The notes: generated by a model not told the origin, from the sequence alone. A stretch of 62,341 nt of DNA from a virus (IMGVR_UViG_3300042382_000594); one strand, 5' to 3'. Numbered from the stretch's first letter, positions 39,210-50,375 are shown. Numbers and translations are program-made.

Positions 39210-39357
39210 AAATTCCTTTTATGGTTGATTTAAAGTGAAAAACCCGCTTACCGATTATTAGTCGATTCGCGGGTCTTTTTTACTACTATAAGAACATCTC
39301 AATATTCTGGTGTAATATAATTATCATATTTTTAATATTAAATTTATTAATTAAATC

Positions 39358-39369
39358 TATTTATAAATA
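39358..39369. promoter_or_regulatory. palindromic TATTTATAAATA: overlapping divergent late promoters (phoH - / HNH gene +)
   Basis: TATAAATA on both strands. Confidence 0.7.
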
Positions 39370-39438
39370 AGTGTAGATCGCGGAACCCTCATTCCCATCT
39401 ACCCTAAACATTCCTTACAATATTCATGGAGAACATTA

Positions 39439-40344
39439 ATGTCCAGCACAAATACTTATATTAATCTAATTAAACAATTATCGTATAATAACAAATATAC
39501 AAAATGGTATTGTTCAATAATAGAAAATTCGTTACTACGAGCAACATCAAGAAAAACTGCAAATATAATATTGGGTTATTCTGAAGAACACCATATAATA
39601 CCTAAATGTTTTTTCTCTAAACAAGATGCATTATTCAATACAAACCCAAATATAAAAGAAAATAAAACATTTTTATCGACAAAAGAACATTTTCTTTGTC
39701 ATTGGCTATTAACTAAAATGTTAATAAATCAAAAACAATGCAATAAAATGAAATACGCATTTGCCGCGTTTCAATTAAATTCAAAAGGAAATAGAATTTT
39801 AACTTCTGCTCAATATAATCGAGTAAGGCGCGAAAACGCGTTAATAGTTAAAAATAAAGTAGAACAAGGTTTACATTATTTTCAATCAGAAGAATCTAAA
39901 ACCGCAACTAAAGTTTGGATAAAAGAAAAACTTGAAGCTAAAGAACACCATATGCAGCAACAGGAATATAAAGATTTGCATAGAGATAGAAATTTAAAAT
40001 TATCTGAACAAGGGTTACACCCTTTTCAAGATGATTCTTTTATAAAATGTAACGCAGAAAGAACTTCAAAAAGAAATAAAAAATTAGTTGAAGACAATAA
40101 CCACATTTTTCAAAATAAAGAAATAAAGAAAAAAGCATTAACTAATACACTAAAAACTAATAAAAAATTAGTCGAAAATGGATTACATTATTTCCAATCA
40201 GAAGAAAGCAAAAGATTAAGATTAGAAAGAAACAAAAACGATAATCCATCGCATAAAATGTTTCTTTCTATTATATCTTCTAGAAAAACATACTCTAAAG
40301 GGCATCTTTCTACATGGTTTCCTGAATTTAAAAAATATTATTAA
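39439..40344 (+). mobile_element. free-standing HNH-type homing endonuclease gene
   Basis: EEHHIIPK...N...LSTKEHFLCHWLL; repeated GLH(Y/P)FQ units; antisense between the FmdB-like gene and phoH. Confidence 0.75.
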
Positions 40345-40347
40345 TAT

Positions 40348-40620
40348 TTAAAATTCTCGGGGGATTTGAAATTTTCGATCGTGTAATGTATTTTGCGGAA
40401 TTGATTCTTTCATTCTTCCGATTACACCTTTCATAAAATCAGCAGGCGGTTTTTTAATTCCTAGTCTAACTGGGTCGCCGAAACTAGTTTTTGAACATTC
40501 AGAATCATAATATCTTTGAATATGAGGATTATCTTTAACATATTCTTCATATTCGGCAATCTTCATAATTTTCTCAAAGATTTCGCCAGTTTCAGTATTT
40601 TTTAATGGATAGATTGGCAC
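40348..40620 (-). CDS. FmdB-like zinc-ribbon-family regulatory protein (T4-like conserved)
   Basis: MPIYPLKNTETGEIFEKIM..EYEEY..DNPH; usual neighbour of phoH. Confidence 0.7.
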   Translation of the reverse strand: MPIYPLKNTETGEIFEKIMKIAEYEEYVKDNPHIQRYYDSECSKTSFGDPVRLGIKKPPADFMKGVIGRMKESIPQNTLHDRKFQIPREF

Positions 40621-40655
40621 AATTTAATTCCAATAGGGATAATATGATTATTTAT

Positions 40656-40997
40656 TTATGCAGCTTCTTTCGATGCAATCCATTCTTTATATTGATTAGT
40701 ACGTTTATCGACATTTCCTGTTGGTAGACGAGGTAAGTGTTCTGGATATGCATTAGCAGCATTAACCAATTCTTCAGTAAAAACGACATCCTTCTCAACA
40801 GAAAGTTTAACTGTAGGTTTAGCATACCTTTTTTTAAAATCAACAAATGACTCTAATACACTGATATGAGTATCATTATCAAAAAAGATAACTGTTTCTT
40901 TACCTCCAGAAGAAGGAACTGCATAAGCAATTTTCTCTGGATTTACTAAGATTTCCTCACCAAACTGATTTTTCGATTTAACTATAAACATAAACAA
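40656..40997 (-). CDS. hypothetical early protein with FlbD-like N-terminus
   Basis: EILVNPEKI....ETVIFF..THISVLES pattern; early promoter upstream. Confidence 0.5.
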   Translation of the reverse strand: MFMFIVKSKNQFGEEILVNPEKIAYAVPSSGGKETVIFFDNDTHISVLESFVDFKKRYAKPTVKLSVEKDVVFTEELVNAANAYPEHLPRLPTGNVDKRTNQYKEWIASKEAA

Positions 40998-41015
40998 ACT
41001 CCATTAAAAAATAAT

Positions 41016-41044
41016 ATTATACTATATACTAACAAATAAGTCAA
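41016..41044 (-). promoter_or_regulatory. early promoter TTGACT-N17-TATAAT
   Basis: consensus; divergent from 41061-41089. Confidence 0.85.
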
Positions 41045-41060
41045 GCAAAAGAAAAAATGC

Positions 41061-41089
41061 TTGACTAAATAAACTTTATAGAATACACT
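41061..41089 (+). promoter_or_regulatory. early promoter TTGACT-N17-TACACT
   Basis: same gcTTGAC context as the other promoters; points into a non-coding region. Confidence 0.7.
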
Positions 41090-41095
41090 ATGTAA

Positions 41096-41655
41096 AGTTG
41101 GCTCCGAACCCAACGTCACAGTTATACCCTACAATTTATTAGCAAAAAGTGAGATAGCAACTCACCTTACCGGAGAAACCCTTATCTCCAGTAGGTCTGA
41201 AAAGATAAAATCTATATGTGACTAGATTATTATCGTTCCTGAGATGAGGCAGACAAACCCTAATAAGGTTAAAAGTATATATTCGAATACTTTTCGGCAA
41301 CTGGATAATCGGTGTCGTTATCATTAGTCTAGGGTTGGTCCCTTTGTCTGTTGTTTATGCGTCCTATGTTGATTTTAGCCACAACACTTCTTCAGCCAAT
41401 CAGAGCATAAATAATCGGCGGACTATCTTTAACAGGATAGTTTCTAGTTGTAATAGTTTTTGTAGCTGACACCCGCACCAGTTGCAGTTTTTCTTTAAAA
41501 CCTAAGTGTATATATTCATATACATGAACGGGGGGGTCAAAGAAAATTCAATCTAAGAAAAACTGGATCTTGATTCCGAAGGAATCGATCGAGCGAAGCG
41601 AAGATTATATTAGTATCAAATTAAATGTTCGCTTCGCTCACATTGCTTCGCTTTA
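41096..41655 (+). ncRNA. candidate large structured non-coding RNA, unclassified
   Basis: no credible ORF; promoter directly upstream; more than 10 helices visible by eye. Confidence 0.5.
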
Positions 41656-41676
41656 TTAATGTTGTTAAATAAATGC

Positions 41677-41705
41677 TTGACGAAAACAAAAATTCAAGTT
41701 ACAAT
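41677..41705 (+). promoter_or_regulatory. early promoter TTGACG-N17-TACAAT
   Basis: consensus upstream of 41801. Confidence 0.8.
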
Positions 41706-41800
41706 AAATAAAAATGTAGAAACAAATCTCCCCCTTCGGGAAATTAACCATATGGAATCAGTAATTGATTCTAACAGTAACTTTAAATGAAAATTAATTT

Positions 41801-42229
41801 ATGATTAAGAACGTACATGAAATTCTAGATGAATTTAATCTAGCAGTAAACAAACAACAAAGAGTAGAAATTCTTCAACAGAATAATCTTTATCATTTTA
41901 AAGAAGTATTAAAATATACATTTAATCCAAACTATCAATTCTATGTTGAAGATAATTTTCCAACAGATTATATCGAACCAGATACTCTATTAGGAATTAG
42001 ATATGCTGGAATTGAATCAGAAATCCGTCGAGCCTATTTGTTCGTCAAAGGAGATCCAACTGCTGATTCATTAACAGATGATAAACGTAATCTTCTTTTG
42101 TTACAATTACTAGAATCTTTTGAGCCTAAAGAGGCTAAGATTTTCTTTAACATGTTACACAAAGACTTGAAGGTTAAAGGCTTAACAACAGATTTAGTTC
42201 GTGAAGTATATCCAGAACTTTTAAATTAA
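41801..42229 (+). CDS. conserved T4-like hypothetical protein (DUF6433-like)
   Basis: VHEIL...LKYTFNP...KRNLLLLQLLESFEPKEA...KDLKVKGLT..LVREVYPELL. Confidence 0.7.
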   Translation: MIKNVHEILDEFNLAVNKQQRVEILQQNNLYHFKEVLKYTFNPNYQFYVEDNFPTDYIEPDTLLGIRYAGIESEIRRAYLFVKGDPTADSLTDDKRNLLLLQLLESFEPKEAKIFFNMLHKDLKVKGLTTDLVREVYPELLN

Positions 42230-42250
42230 ACTTAGTAAATAGTACAACAG

Positions 42251-42418
42251 ATGAAAAAGCACAGCAATATTCTTATGGAAGATTATACCGATTTCCAGCC
42301 TAGAAAAACCAAACAGATTAAGAAATTCAAAACGAATCAAGTTTCGTTTTCTGAGTTAGAGTATGACGATTTTCAACCAACAAAGAAGAAAAAGAATGTC
42401 AATTTTAAACAGTATTAA
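42251..42418 (+). CDS. small basic hypothetical protein
   Basis: 55-aa ORF read manually (MKKHSNIL...); closely packed. Confidence 0.4.
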   Translation: MKKHSNILMEDYTDFQPRKTKQIKKFKTNQVSFSELEYDDFQPTKKKKNVNFKQY

Positions 42419-42563
42419 AGACGTATATAACAGTATCCCTAAACAAGAACCTGTTAAACAAATTGTAACCCCGATGGATCCAGAATTATTGGGCAAAACT
42501 TTGGACCATCTTAACCAACAGCCTCAAATTGCCCCAAATATTACTAGGAAACCAGAAAAATGA
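42396..42563 (+). CDS. small hypothetical protein (MSILNSIKD...)
   Basis: ORF track 42363-42563; the internal ATG fits gene packing better. Confidence 0.45.
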   Translation: MSILNSIKDVYNSIPKQEPVKQIVTPMDPELLGKTLDHLNQQPQIAPNITRKPEK

Positions 42564-42736
42564 ACTTAAAAAATCTGATATTCCGTCAACACTATCTGAT
42601 GGAATTGAGTTACTCATCAAGTAACAAAGCTAAACAAGCTTCAAAAGAGCAAGTAGTAACTTCTAAAACTTTATACCCCGAAGATTTCGCTGAAGCGATG
42701 TTCGGTATTTTCACTGAAAAAGATCTCAAAATTTAA
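42560..42736 (+). CDS. small hypothetical protein (MNLKNLIFRQHY...)
   Basis: 58-aa ORF with an ATGA-type overlap. Confidence 0.45.
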   Translation: MNLKNLIFRQHYLMELSYSSSNKAKQASKEQVVTSKTLYPEDFAEAMFGIFTEKDLKI

Positions 42737-42752
42737 TCTAGGAATTTATATC

Positions 42753-43010
42753 ATGACACAAATCGATAAAGATACATTAAAAGCTAACTTACAAAATGGA
42801 ACTGGAACTATTGTCTTTACAAAAGCTGATGGTTCAGAAAGAACAATGAAATGCACTTTAAAATCAGATTTATTGCCTGTTGTAGAGATTAAAGAAGGGG
42901 CGAAAGTTAAAGTAGAAAATCCCGAAGTATTATCCGTGTGGGACTTAGAAAATTTAGGATGGCGTTCATTTAGACTTGATTCAATTATTTCTGCTAATGT
43001 AACTTTATAA
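42753..43010 (+). CDS. SH3-fold WYL_2/DUF2693-like protein
   Basis: IVFTKADGSERTMKCTL...VWDLENLGWRSFRLDSI. Confidence 0.85.
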   Translation: MTQIDKDTLKANLQNGTGTIVFTKADGSERTMKCTLKSDLLPVVEIKEGAKVKVENPEVLSVWDLENLGWRSFRLDSIISANVTL

Positions 43011-43019
43011 AGAATTGAT

Positions 43020-43038
43020 GGGGGAGTTTTGCTCCCCC
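43020..43038. terminator. intrinsic terminator between convergent genes
   Basis: gggggag-ttttg-ctccccc. Confidence 0.7.
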
Positions 43039-43044
43039 AAATTT

Positions 43045-44763
43045 TTAAGGTCTTCTAGTAAGCTCTCGTTTAGCAGCCATGCTAACATCTTTATGTTTAT
43101 CGTTTGCTAATATATTAAGATGTTCTTTGGTTGCATTTGGATTGTTTGCGGCAGCTTGTCTAACATATGGAGACTTGTCTTTAATTAATTTATCTAAATG
43201 TTCTTTGTGTGGAGTGTTATCTGCTGCAGCAATTTTAACCATTGCCTCTTTATCGTTAATTAATTTATCAAAATGATCTTTATCTGTAGCTTTATTTTTT
43301 GCAACAGCTAGCCTAACATTACTACTTTTGTCTCCAGCTAAATGGTCTAAATGATCTTTCTGTGTAGTATTTCTTGCAACATTTAATCTTACAAAATCAT
43401 CTGGATCATTAATAAATTTACCTAATTTTTCGTTATGGTTTTTATTGGTATGAACTATATTGGCTCTAATATTAGGGCTTTCATCAGAATTTAATTTATC
43501 TATATGTTCTTTATGCGGCGAATTTACTAAAACTGCTTTTCTAACGTGTTCAGATTTATCGTTAACAAGTTTATCAAAATGTTCTTTAGTTGTATTCGGA
43601 TTATTTGCTACAGCTGCTCTAACTTTGTGGTCTTTATCGTTAACAAGTTTATCTAGATATTTTTTATGCGATGTATTTTCTGCTACAGCTGTTCTAACGT
43701 CTTCATTTTCGTCATTACTAAGTTTATCAAGATGCTCTTTAGTTGCATTTGGATTAGTTGCAACGCTTGCTCTAATTTTTGGATCTTTATGCGTAATTGC
43801 ATATTTATCTATATGTTCTTTATGTGGGGAATTTTTAAAAACTGTGTTTCTAACATGCTCGCTTTCGTCTTCGATAAGTTTATCAAGATGCTCTTTAGTT
43901 GCAGATTTATTGGCTGCAACACCTGCTCTAATATCTTCATCTTTATCATTAATTAATTTATCTAAATGTTCTTTACTATTTGTAGGGTCTGAAGCTTTTT
44001 GTACTTTATAGTGTCTAGAATTTTTGATAGCAGGAATTTTTTCTAATTCAGGGTTTCTGTGTATTAAATTATGGAAATCTTCGCCTTTAATTGTTTTATT
44101 ATTTTCATCTTGAAATTGTCCTTCTACTCCAACGCCACCAATTCTTCTATGGGGAAATTGTTCTTTATGCATATGTAAAATATGAAAATTACCTCTAGAT
44201 TTTTCGTTATAATGTTGAAACATATTTTTACTTCGATCTGTGATGGAAGTACACCAGCCTAATTTTTCTCCATTATCTTTTTTGCCTAATTCCTGAGCTG
44301 CTTCTGTTGTATGAACGTGATATGCAGTAAGATTAGGGCTATTGTGCACAACAGTAGAACCATTTACAACTTTAGAATTATTAATAGCTTTTACTTCCTC
44401 ATCTTTTTCTTTATGTGGATGCATAGCCGTTTTTAATTCTGAAACTGATTTATATTGTTCTATTCTTTTCTTAGGTAATTTTGATTTGTATTTCTCAAAA
44501 TTCTTTACTGTATCGTGCATATCATGAGCATCTTCTTGCTTTATCTCGCCTTTTTTATATTGGTCCATCATCCAACGAGTATGTTGGACATTACCGCCTG
44601 GAGTATGTTTATGAAAATGGTCAATAATATCAGCTGCAGATTTATGTTGTGCATCTGGATCGTGTTTAGTTGAGATATTTGTTTCTTGTGCTTTATAATC
44701 ATCGATTTTAGATTCGTTCATTAAAAAACGTTCGATCATTAAAAAATGTTTAAATCTTAACAT
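43045..44763 (-). CDS. His-rich protein: conserved N-terminal domain (GWCT...NMF..Y, PcfJ-like) plus ~12 HEAT/LRV-like repeats
   Basis: KEHLDKLxNDKxxxVRxAVAxN units; starts MLRFKHFLMIE. Confidence 0.75.
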   Translation of the reverse strand: MLRFKHFLMIERFLMNESKIDDYKAQETNISTKHDPDAQHKSAADIIDHFHKHTPGGNVQHTRWMMDQYKKGEIKQEDAHDMHDTVKNFEKYKSKLPKKRIEQYKSVSELKTAMHPHKEKDEEVKAINNSKVVNGSTVVHNSPNLTAYHVHTTEAAQELGKKDNGEKLGWCTSITDRSKNMFQHYNEKSRGNFHILHMHKEQFPHRRIGGVGVEGQFQDENNKTIKGEDFHNLIHRNPELEKIPAIKNSRHYKVQKASDPTNSKEHLDKLINDKDEDIRAGVAANKSATKEHLDKLIEDESEHVRNTVFKNSPHKEHIDKYAITHKDPKIRASVATNPNATKEHLDKLSNDENEDVRTAVAENTSHKKYLDKLVNDKDHKVRAAVANNPNTTKEHFDKLVNDKSEHVRKAVLVNSPHKEHIDKLNSDESPNIRANIVHTNKNHNEKLGKFINDPDDFVRLNVARNTTQKDHLDHLAGDKSSNVRLAVAKNKATDKDHFDKLINDKEAMVKIAAADNTPHKEHLDKLIKDKSPYVRQAAANNPNATKEHLNILANDKHKDVSMAAKRELTRRP

Positions 44764-44787
44764 ATAAGGGAATCCTATAAATAATGC

Positions 44788-44816
44788 TTGACTAATTTAA
44801 AAAAATATTATATAAT
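44788..44816 (+). promoter_or_regulatory. early promoter TTGACT-N17-TATAAT for topoisomerase
   Basis: consensus. Confidence 0.85.
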
Positions 44817-44823
44817 ATTTATA
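44816..44823 (-). promoter_or_regulatory. late promoter TATAAATA for 43045-44763
   Basis: exact consensus overlapping the early -10 box. Confidence 0.7.
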
Positions 44824-44846
44824 CCATAAACTTTTAACAGTATTTT

Positions 44847-46715
44847 ATGACAAAACACATTCAACAAACTTATCAAGTTCTTGACGAGATTGAACACATT
44901 AGAAAACGAACTGGCATGTATTGCGGTTCTACTTCTGTTCAAACAAGTCAAGAATGGGTGCTAAACAACACCACAAAGAAAATGGAAAAGCGAGATATTT
45001 CTTATATCCCAGCTTTTATTAAAATCTTTTCTGAAATTCTCGATAATTCAATTGATGAAGGAAAAAGAGCACCGGATACATTAACTCAAATTAAAGTCGA
45101 TATAACTTTTGATGAAATTTCCGTTCAAGATGATGGTAGAGGTATCCCAGTAGTTCTTCATGAACAAACAGGAACTTATATCGCTGAAACTGTATTTTCT
45201 AACCTACGAGCTGGTTCTAATTTTAACGATAATGAAGACCAATCGCTAATTGGAACTAATGGTGTTGGTTCGACGTTGACAAATGTTTTATCAACAAATT
45301 TTAAGATTGAATCTTGTGATGGTAAGAAAAAACTAACGCAAGATTTCTGGAATGGTATGCGCGAGCGTTCCGAGCCTATAATTAAAGATTTTACTAAAAA
45401 TGGAACTAAAATTACGTTTACTCCAGATTATGAATTTTTTAAACTAAGTGGGTTAGATGCAGACCATATTCTACGAATTCAGAAAAAAGTAATAGATGCA
45501 GCTGCGAATAACTTAAACATTAAATTTTATTTTAATGGGGAATTAATTAGATTTAGATCTTTTGACGATTATGTTGCATTATATTCAGATAATTACTTTA
45601 CCGATAATAGTAAAGATTGGAATGTTGGCATTACCGATTCTGATGGATTTGAGCAAATTTCTTTTATTAACTCAGTAGAAACCTATCAGGGTGGAACTCA
45701 TGTTAATTATGTTGTTGATCAAGTAACAAATAAGTTACGCGAACATTTTAAAAAGAAACATAAAGTTGATGTAAAACCATCTGATATTAAAAATCATTTT
45801 AGAATTTTTATTGCAGGAACTGTTAACCGCCCTAGATTTTCCAGTCAAACTAAAGAAAATATGATTAGTCCTGCATCTGAATGGAAAACTTCATGGACTG
45901 TTAGCGATAAATTTATTAAAGGTTTATTAAAATCTGATATTATTCAGTCTATTTTAGACTGGGTTCAAGCTAAAGAAAAAGCATCTGAATTAGCTGAATT
46001 GCGTAAAGCTAATAAGAACTTAGATAAAGCCGATCCAAGAAGAGTTGATAAATTCCATGATGCTTCTACTAAACAACGTAGTGATGCTATGTTATTCTTA
46101 GCAGAAGGAGATTCAGCTTTATCTGGTTTATTATCAGGTAGAGATCCAAAGACAATGGCTGCATTTCCGCTACGTGGCAAACCCATAAATGTAATGCCAA
46201 TGGAATTAAAAGATATTCTTGAAAATAGAGAGTTTAAAAATATTATGACAATTACTGGGCTTCAGTTTGGGGTTAAGGTAAATTCTATTGAAGATATTCG
46301 ATTTGGTAAAATTGTATTATCAACAGACCAAGATTTAGATGGATTTGGTATTCGTGGACTATTGTTAAATGCTTTTTATAAATTTTGGCCAGAATTATTT
46401 TCCTTGGGTATTATCCATATTTTAAATACACCAATTGTCAAGGTTAAGTATAAAAAAGATACATTATCTTTTCATGATTTGACATTATTTGAGAAATGGA
46501 AAGAAAAACATGTTAACGAAAAATATGAGTCAAAATATTACAAAGGATTAGGAACTAGTTCTAGTAAAGAGTGGAAAGAGTATCTAACGGATTTATCTGG
46601 TAATTTGGAAAAAGTTGTTAGTGAAATTGGTGATGTAGATATTTTTACATTACAATTTTCTAAAGATACTGGTAGCGCTGATAAAAGAAAACAATGGTTG
46701 AATATTGAAGGATAA
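44847..46715 (+). CDS. gp39: type II DNA topoisomerase large subunit (gp39 and gp60 in one ORF)
   Basis: EHIRKRTGMY; EILDNSIDE; GTNGVG; EGDSA; PLRGK; DQDLDG; YYKGLG. Confidence 0.97.
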   Translation: MTKHIQQTYQVLDEIEHIRKRTGMYCGSTSVQTSQEWVLNNTTKKMEKRDISYIPAFIKIFSEILDNSIDEGKRAPDTLTQIKVDITFDEISVQDDGRGIPVVLHEQTGTYIAETVFSNLRAGSNFNDNEDQSLIGTNGVGSTLTNVLSTNFKIESCDGKKKLTQDFWNGMRERSEPIIKDFTKNGTKITFTPDYEFFKLSGLDADHILRIQKKVIDAAANNLNIKFYFNGELIRFRSFDDYVALYSDNYFTDNSKDWNVGITDSDGFEQISFINSVETYQGGTHVNYVVDQVTNKLREHFKKKHKVDVKPSDIKNHFRIFIAGTVNRPRFSSQTKENMISPASEWKTSWTVSDKFIKGLLKSDIIQSILDWVQAKEKASELAELRKANKNLDKADPRRVDKFHDASTKQRSDAMLFLAEGDSALSGLLSGRDPKTMAAFPLRGKPINVMPMELKDILENREFKNIMTITGLQFGVKVNSIEDIRFGKIVLSTDQDLDGFGIRGLLLNAFYKFWPELFSLGIIHILNTPIVKVKYKKDTLSFHDLTLFEKWKEKHVNEKYESKYYKGLGTSSSKEWKEYLTDLSGNLEKVVSEIGDVDIFTLQFSKDTGSADKRKQWLNIEG

Positions 46716-46717
46716 TT

Positions 46718-48022
46718 ATGAAAGAAATTACAATTGAAAGATTATTTCAGGAACAATACAAACCATATGCCAATTATGATAACGAACGGTCAATCGTTAA
46801 TTTAATTGATGGATTAAAGATTACTCAAAGAAAAGTTCTTTATACATGTTTATTAAAGAATGTTAATTCTGAAATGAAAGTTGCGCAATTAGCATCTTCT
46901 GTTGCTTATGAAACACAATATCATCATGGAGAACAAGGAATAGCTGGGGTTATTTGTAATCTAGCTCAAGACTTTACTGGATCCAATAACTTAAACTGGT
47001 TAGATCCCATTGGTCAGTTTGGTTCAAGATTATCACCTGTTCCTGCAGCTGCTCGATATATTTTTACTAAATTATCGAAAAATTTTAGATTATATTTTCG
47101 TAAAGAAGATGATATTATCTTAGAACATTTATTCGAGGATGACTTTAAAATAGAGCCTAATTTTTTCGTTCCAATCCTCCCTGGAGTGCTTTTAAACAAC
47201 TCGCTAGGAATAGGTACGGGTTTTGCTTCTACGATCCTCTCAAGAGATCCAAAGGAACTTGCAAAGTATATTAAAGCTAAACTCTCTGGAAGTTCAAAGA
47301 AATTTCAATTATTACCACATTTTCGCGGATTTAAAGGTAGCGTAACTCGACTTGATAATAAGTATCAAATCAAGGGTTCTATCTCTAGAATTAATGCTAC
47401 ACAGGTAAAGATTACTGAATTACCAGTAGGAATGTATCTTGATGATATTAAGAAACAGCTTAATAAATTAGTAGAGAATAATTCTATTAAAGATTATGAA
47501 GATAATTCAACGGAAGAAGGGTTTGATATTGATATATTTTATCAACGCGGAATTCTTAATTCAATGGAGGATGATACTATTCTTGAGAAATTAAAATTAG
47601 TTACAACAGTAACAGAGAATTTAACCTGTTGGTTGCCTACTGGTAAATTAAGAAAGTTTGGATCGGTTAATGAAATTATTGATTATTTTATCGATTGGCG
47701 TTTAGGTAAATATACAGATAGAATCAATAAATTAATTGAAATCCTTGATAATGATATTATTGATTTAAATGAACGAGTAAGATTTATCTATTTTTATCTA
47801 GGTAATGTTAATAAATTTAAAAATGCTTCTAAGATTGAATTATTTAGTATTTTAGAAGAAAACAATTTTGACAGTAAATTATTAGATATGAAAATTTGGA
47901 ATTTAACTGGCGATAGAATTATCGAGTTAGAGCAAAAGGTTAAATCTTTGGTTGAGCAAAAGGTTGAGTTGCAAGAAACAACAAATATTGTATTATACGC
48001 AAAAGAATTGGAGCAAATATGA
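46718..48022 (+). CDS. gp52: type II DNA topoisomerase medium subunit
   Basis: IDGLKITQRK; YHHGE; GQFGSR...AARYI; GIGTGF. Confidence 0.97.
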   Translation: MKEITIERLFQEQYKPYANYDNERSIVNLIDGLKITQRKVLYTCLLKNVNSEMKVAQLASSVAYETQYHHGEQGIAGVICNLAQDFTGSNNLNWLDPIGQFGSRLSPVPAAARYIFTKLSKNFRLYFRKEDDIILEHLFEDDFKIEPNFFVPILPGVLLNNSLGIGTGFASTILSRDPKELAKYIKAKLSGSSKKFQLLPHFRGFKGSVTRLDNKYQIKGSISRINATQVKITELPVGMYLDDIKKQLNKLVENNSIKDYEDNSTEEGFDIDIFYQRGILNSMEDDTILEKLKLVTTVTENLTCWLPTGKLRKFGSVNEIIDYFIDWRLGKYTDRINKLIEILDNDIIDLNERVRFIYFYLGNVNKFKNASKIELFSILEENNFDSKLLDMKIWNLTGDRIIELEQKVKSLVEQKVELQETTNIVLYAKELEQI

Positions 48023-48204
48023 GTGTAAATTTAACGCCAAAAGAGATGTCAGAATTACAGGGTAGATTTTCTACCGTGATGATTAATGAAACTATTAGTA
48101 ATGATACTATTGTTTGTACTTTATCTACGGGTAAGGTGGTAAACGGAGTAGTTACTGAGAACGGAGTTCAAATTAAATCTGTTTCTGAATTATTATTCGG
48201 GTAA
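48019..48204 (+). CDS. small hypothetical protein
   Basis: ATGA overlap with gp52, followed by a terminator. Confidence 0.55.
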   Translation: MSVNLTPKEMSELQGRFSTVMINETISNDTIVCTLSTGKVVNGVVTENGVQIKSVSELLFG

Positions 48205-48209
48205 ATAAA

Positions 48210-48233
48210 AAATGGGAGCTTTCGCTCCCATTT
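48210..48233. terminator. bidirectional terminator
   Basis: aaatgggagc-tttc-gctcccattt. Confidence 0.85.
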
Positions 48234-48236
48234 CCT

Positions 48237-49424
48237 TTATTGCATTTTGGCTAATCTTTCTTTGGCAATCGAACTTACAGTTTGCGCGTCATCATTTGCT
48301 AAATGTTGTAAATGTTGTTTGGTAGCTAAAGGGTGAGCAGCAACAACTTTTCTTACTAATGAGTGCGGGTCTTTTATAGCTTTATCTAGATGTTTTGTGG
48401 TTACAGTTTTAGGTCGAGTTAATGCAAGTTCCCGTGTAGTTACGCTTCTATTGTCAGTATTATTTAATACTTTATCAATATGATCAGAATTTATTTTTGG
48501 ATGCGTTATTGCATTATTTTTTATATTCCCTATTTTATCATCTAATGCTGTATGTAAATGGTCTTCATCAACATTAGGATGTTTTATTGCTTTATTTCTT
48601 ACTTCCCAATTTTCGGAATGTAATCCATCATGAATATCTTTTTTAGATGCTGTTGGTGAGTCTAATTTTTTATTTGAGATATGATCATCGTATGCTCTTT
48701 TAACTGGGGCAATTTTCTTTACGTCTGGATTTCTATGAACAAAGTCTTCTAATCTATCGCCTTCAATTGTTTTATTATTTTCATCTTGAAATTGTCCTTC
48801 TACTCCAACGCCACCAATTCTTCTATATGGAAATTGTTCTTTATGCATATGTAGGATATGGAAATTACCTTCAGACTCGTCATTATAATGATTAAACATA
48901 TTTTGATTTGCATCTGGATGAGAAGTACACCAACCCAATTTCTCGCCTTTTGGTGATTTACCTAATTCCTGAGCTGCTTCTGTTTTATGCACGTGATAAG
49001 CCGTAGCATTTGGACTATTATGAATAACAGTTGAACCTTTATTAATTTTATCTTGATTTACAGCTTTTACTTGTTCATCTTGTTCTTTATGCGGATGAAT
49101 AGCTGTTTTTAATTCCGAAACAGATTTATATTGTTCAACTTTTTTCTTCGGAAGATTATGTTTGTATTTTTCAAAATTAGTCAACGTATCTTTCATATCA
49201 GGAGCATCTTCTTGTTTCATTTCGCCTTTTTTATATCGATCAATCATCCAACGAGTATGTTGGACATTGCCATTAGGAGTATGTTTATGGAAGTGATCGA
49301 TAATATCCGCAGCAGATTTATGTTTTCCTTCTAAATCATGTTGAGTAGAAATATCTTTTTCTTGAGCTTTATAGTCGTCTATCTTAGCTTCAAGTAAAGA
49401 AATGAAATGTTTAAATCTTATCAT
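48237..49424 (-). CDS. paralogue of 43045-44763 with ~5 HEAT/LRV-like repeats
   Basis: near-identical N-terminal ~250 aa; starts MIRFKHFISLLEA. Confidence 0.75.
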   Translation of the reverse strand: MIRFKHFISLLEAKIDDYKAQEKDISTQHDLEGKHKSAADIIDHFHKHTPNGNVQHTRWMIDRYKKGEMKQEDAPDMKDTLTNFEKYKHNLPKKKVEQYKSVSELKTAIHPHKEQDEQVKAVNQDKINKGSTVIHNSPNATAYHVHKTEAAQELGKSPKGEKLGWCTSHPDANQNMFNHYNDESEGNFHILHMHKEQFPYRRIGGVGVEGQFQDENNKTIEGDRLEDFVHRNPDVKKIAPVKRAYDDHISNKKLDSPTASKKDIHDGLHSENWEVRNKAIKHPNVDEDHLHTALDDKIGNIKNNAITHPKINSDHIDKVLNNTDNRSVTTRELALTRPKTVTTKHLDKAIKDPHSLVRKVVAAHPLATKQHLQHLANDDAQTVSSIAKERLAKMQ

Positions 49425-49446
49425 ATGGAGATCCTAGAAATAATGC

Positions 49447-49475
49447 TTGACTTTTTAATATATGTATGGTATAAT
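49447..49475 (+). promoter_or_regulatory. early promoter TTGACT-N17-TATAAT, pointing antisense into the GIY-YIG gene
   Basis: consensus. Confidence 0.75.
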
Positions 49476-49476
49476 A

Positions 49477-49484
49477 TATTTATA
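49477..49484 (-). promoter_or_regulatory. late promoter TATAAATA for 48237-49424
   Basis: exact consensus. Confidence 0.7.
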
Positions 49485-49487
49485 AAT

Positions 49488-50231
49488 TTAGAATAAATGC
49501 TTTAAGTCTGGGAAAACTCTACTTGCTACACATATATCATATTCTTTTTTATTTTTAATATTGCACAAAAATAAATCTTTCTTTTTATGTTTTTTATTTG
49601 TTGTTCCAAGGTTAAACCCATCTGGTATTTGATCATCTTTGCCTATTTGAATATTAATTATATTATTTGTGATCCAAGTATATTGATAATTTTTTAAATT
49701 TAATTTACCATAAATCCATCCAGTAGGTATTTGTTCATTTTTGTGTATTTTATTATTAATTATTCCGTTATTTATCCAGACTTTATTTTTATTATGACTT
49801 TTATCTCCAGATATTTTTAATGAGAATTCTAATTTTCTTTTATCTGACCACCTATTATTCCAATTAGGATTATTTTCTCCAATACAATTTTGTAATTTAT
49901 ATTCATCAGTAAATACTTTACCTGAACCTCCTTCGCCGCCGTCAGTTAGATTTAAAAGAATTCCAGTTCCTAGATCTTTTCTGCCATGCCAACGAATTAA
50001 TCTTCGTTCAATAGCAAAAGCGCCAGTTTCGGTGAGATTTGATTCTATAACAATAATTAACGATTTATCTTTTGGTAATTTTATTCTTCCATGTTTTGCA
50101 TATGCCCGTTTTCCTTGACCTTTTCCAATATAATATGGAGTTCCTGCTTTTGCAGTTATTGAATCTTTTGATCTGAGATAGGCGTAAACGTAAAAAGATT
50201 TTTGTTTTGTATAAGTATTTGTGCTGGGCAT
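49488..50231 (-). mobile_element. free-standing GIY-YIG-type homing endonuclease gene
   Basis: FYVYAYLR...PYYIGKG..KRAY...ERRLI...[10 protein letters not shown]; WINNG/WITNN repeats. Confidence 0.75.
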
Positions 50232-50303
50232 TACAGTCTCCTGATTGTTGTAGAAATGTTTAGAGCTTATGGGTGGTGAGACACCGCGATAAGCATTTTT
50301 TCC

Positions 50304-50332
50304 TTGACTTTATACTACTTTTATAGTATAAT
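50304..50332 (+). promoter_or_regulatory. early promoter TTGACT-N17-TATAAT for rnh
   Basis: consensus. Confidence 0.8.
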
Positions 50333-50375
50333 TTTATTTATAGTAATTAATATTTTTAATATAGGATTTTTTGTC

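Follow-up and report, generated by a model that had tools for sequence, protein, structure and literature searches.

A portable cassette at the start of homing endonuclease genes of a T4-like phage and its predicted antisense RNA

Why do two unrelated nuclease genes of one phage open with the same small piece of DNA, and on which strand is this piece conserved? The window, by which we mean the whole analysed stretch of 62,341 nt, stems from an uncultured lake T4-like phage. The protein P0001 matched phrog_655 of PHROG (3.5e-21) and has a visible HNH motif, and P0002 matched phrog_15526 (1.9e-17), has a visible GIY-YIG-type motif and showed a weak match to the DNA-binding region of I-TevI (1i3j, E 0.17). 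A Pfam search called neither protein, and the nuclease classes are assigned by the PHROG matches and the visible motifs. A sequence-only reading had listed hairpins, a box, Shine-Dalgarno (SD) sequences, shared codons, TATAAATA and similar C-terminal tails at both genes, and all of these were found in place. The basic layout is as follows, with P1 denoting the hairpin.

39362..39369, plus strand: TATAAATA, promoter box of the T4-late type serving the HNH mRNA, with the hairpin 3 nt downstream
39373..39402, fold on the minus strand: P1 of the HNH locus, candidate terminator of an antisense RNA
39439..40344, plus strand: Mob-like HNH homing endonuclease gene (P0001, 301 aa; phrog_655, motif EEHHIIPK)
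39453..39460, minus strand: late-promoter-like antisense box TATAAGTA of the HNH gene, reverse complement of codons 5-7
about 40258-40341, plus strand: C-terminal motif of the HNH gene (motif alignment A7)
49488..50231, minus strand: GIY-YIG-type homing endonuclease gene (P0002, 247 aa; phrog_15526, motif YVYAYL...YYIGKG)
about 49491-49574, minus strand: C-terminal motif of the GIY-YIG gene, a similar tail
50210..50217, plus strand: late-promoter-like antisense box TATAAGTA of the GIY element
50265-50294, gene on the minus strand, fold on the plus strand: P1 of the GIY locus
50304..50332, plus strand: sigma-70-like promoter TTGACT-17-TATAAT directly past P1, towards rnh, duplicate of 49447-49475
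50335..50342, minus strand: TATAAATA box serving the GIY mRNA, with the hairpin 40 nt downstream

Each hairpin is followed by CTAAACATT, the SD sequence GGAGA and ATG(T/C)CC; at the HNH locus P1 ends at 39402 and the SD is located at 39428-39432. The identical 18-mer CCAGCACAAATACTTATA spans codons 2-7 of both genes (39443-39460 on the plus strand, 50210-50227 on the minus strand), and its two exact copies compare to 0.12 matches expected in shuffles with up to 3 mismatches allowed. P1 consists of an outer stem of 6 bp, one G:C pair between two bulged G (C on the sense strand), an inner stem of 4 bp and a loop of 6 nt. Stems and loop were as described before; what had been taken for a CGC bulge and a C bulge is a C-bulge, one G:C pair and another C-bulge.

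The conserved fold is that of the antisense strand, opposite to the nuclease gene. For P1 alone, 97.7% of the cells were paired in 28 distinct copies, with compensatory changes at 11 of 11 pairs, and none of 500 shuffles reached this value, so that the similarity greatly exceeds chance. Even the single pair between the bulges covaries (G:C in 40, A:U in 15 and A.C in 5 cases). All 10 non-Watson-Crick cells of the P1 stem were A.C on the sense strand, corresponding to G.U on the antisense strand, and the reverse was never seen. A second helix of 8 bp, P2, is formed by the start-codon region and the box. It was complete on the antisense strand in 53 of 56 distinct sequences (99.8% paired), while the sense strand formed a mean of 6.2 of the 8 pairs with two A.C mismatches. 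For P2 and P1 together, a MAFFT alignment of the 56 distinct sequences gave 98.7% pairing on the antisense strand and 13 covarying pairs (0 of 500 shuffles equal). In diverged copies the ATG is shifted by three codons, and P2 is retained via compensatory changes; a diverged copy from the same genome scored 61.5 bits with the antisense covariance model (CM) and 37 bits with the sense CM. Since the wobble pairs and the second helix fit the opposite strand only, we concluded that serving as the 5' leader of the nuclease mRNA, as had been proposed, is not the primary role of the cassette. P1 may have a role on the sense strand as well, e.g., as a kissing partner, with about 98% of its cells paired there too.

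Read on the opposite strand, the conserved codons give a TATAA(A/G)TA box of the T4-late type, which is located 5 nt before a conserved GCUGG. This outward late-promoter-like box, already pointed out in the sequence-only reading, proved to be the key feature of the cassette. Part of the cassette sample was gathered with patterns that fix some conserved bases, and a hairpin-only scan, giving an unbiased sample of 33 cassettes chosen by hairpin and box alone, was used as control. In this sample the antisense 8-mer was TATAAGTA in 13, TATAAATA in 12 and nATAAATA in 6 cassettes; nATAA(A/G)TA occupied a fixed site in 31 of 33, antisense to the first codons of the gene and directed towards the gene's own promoter, and its spacing to GCU(G/A)G was fixed at 5 nt. 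Codon 2 was YYY and codon 7 was TAT in all 33, the Ser codon was AGC or AGT but never TCN, and the third base of codon 5 was T throughout (33/33), with 9 different amino acids encoded. Judged from these codons, the promoter-like box is constrained at the level of the nucleotides and not of the peptide, as third codon positions are fixed while amino acids vary.

On the sense strand, 43 of 66 cassettes had an exact TATAAATA no more than 42 nt upstream of P1. It was only 2-6 nt away in 26 of them, so that the mRNA would start within the 5' arm of P1. In cassette L009 the position of the sense promoter is occupied by TATAAGTA, and the fourth copy of this genome has the weak box AATATATA. Across the window TATAAATA was not enriched (18 found, 19 expected), and its function as promoter therefore rests on its position and on knowledge from T4.

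We regard it as moderately probable that this is a portable antisense-RNA cassette whose RNA restrains translation of the nuclease. According to this model, each nuclease gene would open with a portable cassette of about 100 bp with two facing T4-late-type promoters. The left promoter TATAAATA would drive the endonuclease mRNA; the right promoter TATAA(A/G)TA, on the opposite strand in codons 5-7, would drive a small RNA of about 75-90 nt starting at the G of GCUGG and complementary to codons 1-3, the start codon, the SD and the remaining 5' UTR. The 5' end of this RNA would pair with the "box" to form P2 and close a loop bearing the anti-SD, and the bulged hairpin P1 with a U-rich tail would be the terminator. 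Late in infection, base pairing of this RNA with the translation-initiation region would keep down the translation, or the stability, of the selfish nuclease, with the same mode of action as IS10 RNA-OUT on RNA-IN. Production of the RNA, its start, its end and the repression are what we infer from the sequence; in assembled Logan contigs of RNA libraries, which preserve neither strand nor ends, no such transcript was seen. The predicted RNAs comprise the following parts.

39358..39447, minus strand: predicted antisense RNA of the HNH gene, about 90 nt (+1 G at 39447, P2, anti-SD loop, P1, U-rich tail)
39439..39446, minus strand: 5' strand of P2, CUGGACAU on the antisense RNA, reverse complement of ATGTCCAG
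39404..39411, minus strand: 3' strand of P2, AUGUUUAG, reverse complement of the CTAAACAT box
50223..50301, plus strand: predicted antisense RNA of the GIY gene (P2 5' strand 50224-50231, P2 3' strand 50256-50263, P1 50265-50294)
50295-50301, plus strand: tail of the predicted GIY antisense RNA, AUUUUUU

The minimum free energy fold consisted of P2 and P1 for the predicted RNAs of the HNH gene (-23.2 kcal/mol, z -2.4; 97.3 bits with the antisense CM R2) and of the GIY gene (-26.3 kcal/mol, z -2.6; 92 bits with R2), and predicted antisense RNAs of the cassettes folded into P2 and P1 with z values of -2.4 to -3.3. The first 8 nt of the antisense tail past P1 contained a mean of 5.2 T. Tails with runs of at least five U are a large minority, and the others are only UAUUUAUA-like; in about half of the copies the tail, being the reverse complement of the sense promoter, is no more than moderately rich in U. 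A simple terminator scan flagged no P1, since its stem rule excludes bulges.

Comparison to relatives with empty sites defined the two inserts:

39308..40363, plus strand: HNH element with sense promoter, cassette and ORF, from the empty-site allele
49489..50302, minus strand: GIY element, from the empty-site relatives L193 and L190 (flank blastn and three-way alignment)

In a contig of the freshwater run X1, 39307 is joined to 40364 with 7 other bases between, and the left flank shows 0 differences in 158 nt. Because near-identical relatives lack the whole insert, with promoter, cassette and ORF absent together, these alignments indicate that the three are one mobile unit and travel as one insert. 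Two further copies of the cassette are present in the same genome outside the window. CM searches of IMG/VR contigs revealed over 80 distinct copies, with single contigs carrying as many as 8, and the genes behind them belong to many homing endonuclease families (HNH, several GIY-YIG types) and include one TnpB. The postulated modular mobile family was thereby supported, with the same cassette in front of dozens of unrelated nuclease genes. A coupling of the hairpin to the C-terminal motif was not: about 10 of 58 cassette genes have the motif, and the remainder bear at least four other C-terminal modules. Recognition of the hairpin by the C-terminal domain, as had been suggested, can therefore not explain the conservation. 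The cassette matched no described motif of Rfam 15 (window, 0 matches at gathering score; four loci of this genome on both strands, 0 at E up to 1), and no match to it was found in cultured phages. Portable antisense-RNA control, if our model is correct, looks like a form of regulation that is not described for homing endonucleases.

The cassette might instead act for the flanking phage genes, as an insulator and promoter module in which P1 stops antisense read-through of the insert and an outward late or a following early promoter restarts the next gene, so that the insertion would not be polar. We consider this unlikely, even though the neighbourhood speaks for it in several respects. Cassette genes and their neighbours are mostly antiparallel (upstream divergent 43/51, downstream convergent 24/29), the neighbour start codon often lies only 28-35 nt past P1, and a sigma-70-like promoter follows within 120 nt past P1 in the direction of the host gene in 14 of 60 cassettes, compared to 3 for the control orientation. 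On either side of the GIY insert there is an imperfect direct repeat, the duplicated TTGACT-17-TATAAT with 11 of 12 consensus positions in each copy, and invading endonucleases can supply promoters to their neighbours according to a review on T4 (PMC2988022). However, the cassette was intact in 8 cases with the upstream gene on the nuclease strand and is retained whatever the orientation of the neighbour, and the distance to the neighbour start codon varies from 28 to 450 nt. The outward promoter is located upstream of P1, and a terminator there would defeat promoter donation; that rnh has its own sigma-70-like promoter past P1 was likewise counted for the antisense RNA. P2 engages the predicted transcript at its extreme 5' end, with the start region of the nuclease itself as conserved partner, which fits a discrete RNA aimed at the nuclease.

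It appears highly improbable to us that the hairpin acts in the mRNA, as an operator or stabiliser in a sense-strand 5' leader that is bound by a protein, be it a common phage factor or the C-terminal domain found in both nucleases, and with a functional N-terminal peptide. Bulged hairpins are typical of protein operators, 97.7% of the cells of P1 are paired on the sense strand, and all three MSSTNTY copies of this genome have the C-terminal motif, as has one gene found by the motif alone. All wobble and mismatch asymmetries nevertheless point to the other strand, including the two A.C mismatches in the sense P2, the late mRNA would begin within the hairpin in the 26 cassettes mentioned, SD and AUG are outside the hairpin, the codon pattern reflects a nucleotide-level constraint, and the genes joined to the cassette show at least five different C-terminal modules and include TnpB. 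We give the least credit to a recombination cassette at the DNA level, similar to PeSL, in which the conserved segments are short homologies for swapping ORFs, hairpins and spacers between loci or phages and any RNA is incidental. One spacer is indeed combined with different hairpins and ORFs, and vice versa, and for T4-like phages an exchange of modules at PeSL promoter/terminator motifs has been documented (PMC4122927), but homology points need neither covariation nor G.U strand asymmetry, a fixed spacing of promoter and start or a U-rich tail. More likely, shuffling follows from the conserved segments and is not the reason for them.

The predicted antisense RNA resembles RNA-OUT, which acts on RNA-IN in IS10/Tn10 (PMC5006887), and art200 of IS200 (PMC4513863): an opposite-strand promoter within the 5' end of the nuclease gene of a mobile element faces the gene promoter, and the antisense RNA, which is short and structured, has its complement in the translation-initiation region and acts in trans, which makes a copy-number-dependent restraint possible. 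In contrast to IS10, the host here is a lytic T4-like phage and both promoters belong to the T4-late type, homing endonucleases and one TnpB would be targeted, the RNA is predicted and its repression inferred, the RNA would have the closing helix P2 and the doubly bulged terminator hairpin P1, and the overlap would cover the whole 5' UTR (about 65-85 nt, 35 nt in IS10).

In T-even phages, I-TevI, I-TevII, I-TevIII, segB and mobE of Aeh1 have an RBS-sequestering hairpin with an internal late promoter, and the same review names no antisense RNA among the regulators of T4 endonucleases (PMC2988022). A late promoter and an RNA hairpin at the 5' end of an endonuclease gene, presumed to limit its expression, are common to both systems. 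Here, 25-45 nt separate the end of the hairpin from the SD downstream, the promoter is outside and the fold under selection belongs to the opposite strand, contrary to the suggested I-TevI type. We rejected an RBS-sequestering hairpin, since P1 is upstream of the variable, SD-bearing spacer in all aligned copies, and also a nested late promoter, since TATAAATA is 2-42 nt upstream of P1 and not inside. As P1 covers no RBS, its truncation would not expose one.

The antisense RNA CfrI of cyanophage S-PM2, another T4-like phage, was reportedly described by Millard et al. 2010. It is about 225 nt long, antisense to a homing endonuclease gene and co-expressed with it, and it links psbA to that gene (PMC2984593); in its antisense position it parallels the RNA predicted here. 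A search of the S-PM2 genome (NC_006820) with R2 gave 0 matches at E up to 10, from which we concluded that CfrI and the cassette are not homologous. PeSL of T4-like phages are conserved units of early promoter and stem-loop beside variable genes and serve as exchange points (PMC2839356, PMC4122927). They are likewise small regulatory cassettes, and a sigma-70-like promoter past P1 is present at the GIY copy and in 14 of 60 cassettes, the remainder having none; by their descriptions, PeSL differ in lacking a tie to nucleases, a promoter in the coding sequence, the P2 helix and a segment complementary to any start region.

All cassettes have almost the same P2 strands and start region, and one antisense RNA could therefore pair with all cassette-nuclease mRNAs in the cell. 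That these RNAs constitute a shared trans-acting network, with multicopy inhibition or cross-immunity among homing endonucleases and the cassette as a universal domestication kit, is quite doubtful. If it were true, the mRNAs of a co-infecting phage would also be targeted, and any nuclease gene, whether HNH, GIY-YIG or even TnpB, would gain the kit by recombination at the conserved 8-18-nt segments.

The IMG/VR virus record is 126 kb long, and the window covers its first 62 kb, read on the reverse strand. T4-like core genes were present (topoisomerase II subunits, phoH and an rnh-like exonuclease and, elsewhere, gp62 and regA). The closest topoisomerase from a cultured phage was at most 51% identical, and there was no near cultured relative. 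Two nuclease genes were studied:

39439-40344, + strand: Mob-like HNH homing endonuclease ORF (P0001), with a match to phrog_655 (3.5e-21) and an EEHHIIPK motif
49488-50231, - strand: GIY-YIG-type endonuclease ORF (P0002), classed by PHROG matches and motif

Neither protein had a significant match in Pfam. The PDB sequence search gave no match for P0001 and a single weak match for P0002, to the I-TevI DNA-binding domain (E 0.17). In blastn against GenBank phages, the HNH gene and the leader had no match and the interior of the GIY ORF gave weak cyanophage matches and nothing else. The leader described by the sequence-only reading was confirmed before both genes: a bulged hairpin, CTAAACATT, GGAGA within a variable spacer, and ATG(T/C)CC. 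An 18-mer was identical in both genes, and these two exact copies compare with 0.12 matches (up to three mismatches) expected in shuffled sequences.

Comparison of empty and filled sites revealed alleles lacking each element. A contig from the freshwater RNA-library run X1 joined position 39307 to 40364, without the 1056-bp HNH element, and two related contigs (L193 and L190) lacked 49489-50302, the GIY element. At both sites, promoter, cassette and ORF form a single insert. The HNH insert contains the last codons and the stop (40348-40363) of a 90-aa phrog_385 'transcriptional regulator' gene on the - strand, so the empty-site allele encodes a different C-terminus. The flanks of the empty HNH site differed at 15 of 87 nt on the right vs. 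0 of 158 on the left, as expected for a co-conversion tract. Across the cassettes, nuclease genes were antiparallel to their neighbors: the upstream gene was divergent in 43/51 cases and the downstream gene convergent in 24/29.

Two further cassette copies lay in the same genome outside the window. One precedes a nuclease whose sequence starts with MSSTNTY and which shares the C-terminal motif of the window pair. The other is diverged:

G000:C1:96629-96720 (equal to L182:1501-1592): fourth own-genome cassette, between gp62 and regA

In this cassette the ATG is shifted downstream by three codons and the antisense box (AATATATA) is weak; the copy may be decaying or under different regulation. 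The exact 18-mer was found in 31 IMG/VR contigs, with the full leader in about 24. A covariance model and a looser pattern raised the total to 62 distinct cassettes; R2, the antisense-strand covariance model, matched additional loci. Searching with the hairpin and box alone gave 33 distinct cassettes, of which 19 were also in the set of 62. One 74-kb contig carried eight copies. The genes behind the cassette spanned many PHROG homing-endonuclease families (phrog_314 in 20, phrog_655 in 16, and several HNH and GIY-YIG families). One cassette gene, at L100:699-1939 on the - strand, encodes a TnpB-like protein (397 aa) with OrfB_IS605, HTH_OrfB_IS605 and Cas12f1-like TNB domains; its cassette includes MSSNNIY codons, and the reach of the cassette thus goes beyond classical homing endonucleases.

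The C-terminal motif, F(L/I)(S/C)xIxxKKxYxK...FPEFKQYY in a highly variable alignment, is real and recurred on HNH and several GIY-YIG backbones. Its proposed coupling to the leader did not hold, since it is found in only some 10 of the 58 cassette genes; HHKGWKC-type, zinc-ribbon, LPKFLHMKSDEFL or GWxF modules form the C-termini of the remaining genes. The two window copies are conserved at the protein but not the DNA level. A back-translated pattern for FPEFKQYY and the stop matched a single contig, and the matched gene also has the cassette. A sliding-clamp tail like that of this phage's DNA polymerase was ruled out, as the gp43 homolog ends in the dissimilar ...CIDDFFA. The motif is most plausibly one member of a set of exchangeable DNA-binding modules in homing endonucleases, and not the partner of the hairpin.

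The hairpin (P1; 39373-39402 and 50265-50294) was 97.7% paired in 28 distinct copies, with compensatory changes in all 11 pairs. The bulges described earlier were present, but their form was two bulged C around one covarying pair (G:C or A:U) instead of CGC opposite C. All 10 of the 10 non-Watson-Crick cells in the stem were A.C on the nuclease strand, which is G.U on the opposite strand, and the reverse did not occur. A second helix of 8 bp (P2) joins the box CUAAACAU to the start region AUGUCCAG. We had initially considered a sense-strand helix of box and start codon that sequesters the AUG; this idea was dropped for the antisense reading, as the mismatches were all A.C. On the nuclease strand, P2 has two central A.C mismatches and a mean of 6.2 of 8 pairs; on the opposite strand it was complete in 53 of 56 distinct sequences and covaried at two positions via G.U, G:C, A:U and U:A. 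In a structure-blind MAFFT alignment of the opposite strand, P2 and P1 together were 98.7% paired, a value reached by 0 of 500 shuffles. In the diverged subfamily with the ATG moved three codons downstream, P2 is made of different bases, e.g., CUAACUGUU with AACAAUCAG, and its G.U pairs occur solely on the opposite strand. The diverged own-genome copy scored 61.5 bits with the antisense model vs. 37 bits with the sense model. Three independent lines of sequence comparison have shown the structure and its strand, opposite to the nuclease gene.

Codon usage was analyzed only in the 33 cassettes found by hairpin and box alone, to guard against circularity. In all 33, codon 2 was YYY, the P2 partner of UUU. 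The Ser codon was AGC or AGT and never TCN, codon 5 was NNT in 33/33 while encoding nine different amino acids, codon 6 was A(C/T)T, and codon 7 was TAT in 33/33. Read on the opposite strand, these codons gave TATAAGTA (13), TATAAATA (12) or nATAAATA (6), invariably 5 nt ahead of GCU(G/A)G. This matches the geometry of a T4 late promoter relative to its start site. The N-terminal codons common to these genes are a predicted promoter on the opposite strand. The G variant is plausibly active, because one cassette has TATAAGTA in the sense-promoter position. TATAAATA was not enriched across the window as a whole.

We consider a cis-encoded antisense RNA, transcribed late from the embedded promoter, the best reading and a probable one. 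The transcript would begin with G, form P2 from its second base with the anti-Shine-Dalgarno sequence in the loop, and continue through P1 into a tail. It would pair with the translation-initiation region of the nuclease, as RNA-OUT of IS10 pairs with RNA-IN (PMC5006887), and can also be likened to art200 of IS200 (PMC4513863). The predicted RNAs folded in this arrangement with z of -2.4 to -3.3, and the tail after P1 had a mean of 5.2 T in 8 nt. A simple terminator scan, whose stem rule excludes bulges, did not flag P1. Antisense RNAs typically have bulged stems, which guard against RNase III and speed pairing. Transcription, the RNA ends and repression are what we infer from these features.

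That the cassette is instead an insulator or promoter module for neighboring genes appears unlikely, though two features of the GIY site bear on it:

49447-49475, + strand: near-consensus sigma-70-like promoter (TTGACT-17-TATAAT), flanking the GIY insert
50304-50332, + strand: second copy, flanking the insert directly after P1 and facing rnh

The copies form an imperfect direct repeat of about 43 bp, and the first now reads antisense into the GIY nuclease gene. The second is predicted to drive rnh; P1 therefore looks like a stop signal toward rnh, and rnh can do without the outward promoter of the cassette. A sigma-70-like promoter followed P1 in 14/60 cassettes vs. 3 in the control orientation, an order that resembles PeSL motifs (PMC4122927). 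The rnh ORF was called from TTG at 50304, whereas its relatives align only from residue 23-27 onward; its true start is probably the ATG near 50374, which has an AGGA site. Between the HNH cassette and the phoH start, a GC-rich hairpin (39240-39283, ACCCGC...GCGGGT), preceded by an A-run and followed by a T-run, looks like a bidirectional terminator.

An operator acting on the sense strand is improbable. Exact sense TATAAATA did occur no more than 42 nt upstream of P1 in 43/66 cassettes; in 26 it was only 2-6 nt away, so that the nuclease mRNA would begin within the P1 5' arm, which is evidence against P1 acting on the mRNA. Slightly less probable still is a pure recombination cassette. The module of spacer and 18-mer (39404-39460) was joined to other upstream hairpins and other downstream ORFs in lake runs X1, X2, X3 and X7, direct evidence for recombination inside the cassette. 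The base-pair covariation in P1 and at two positions of P2 counts against this reading, as homology points would have no need of it.

A review of T4 mobile DNA lists hairpin masks, autorepression and RNase E processing, and no antisense regulator (PMC2988022). Among T4-like phages, just one antisense RNA, CfrI of S-PM2, has been reported to lie opposite a homing endonuclease gene (PMC2984593); R2 had no match in the S-PM2 genome, and CfrI is unrelated to the cassette. The cassette was not found in cultured phages by blastn, and Rfam gave no match at the gathering score or at E up to 1.

To our knowledge, the restraint of free-standing homing endonucleases toward their own phage is poorly understood beyond a few T4 hairpins. 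The cassette would offer a simple sequence marker by which mobile nuclease genes and their insertion polymorphisms can be recognized in metagenomic phage contigs. An antisense RNA of this kind, if real, would represent a widespread RNA family, undescribed so far, and would add a new level of regulation, in which homing endonucleases are restrained by antisense RNA in parallel to the control of IS10 and IS200 transposases. It would also be a clear example of a promoter embedded in coding sequence, which would force an identical N-terminal peptide on unrelated proteins, and would explain the antiparallel placement of the nuclease genes relative to their neighbors.
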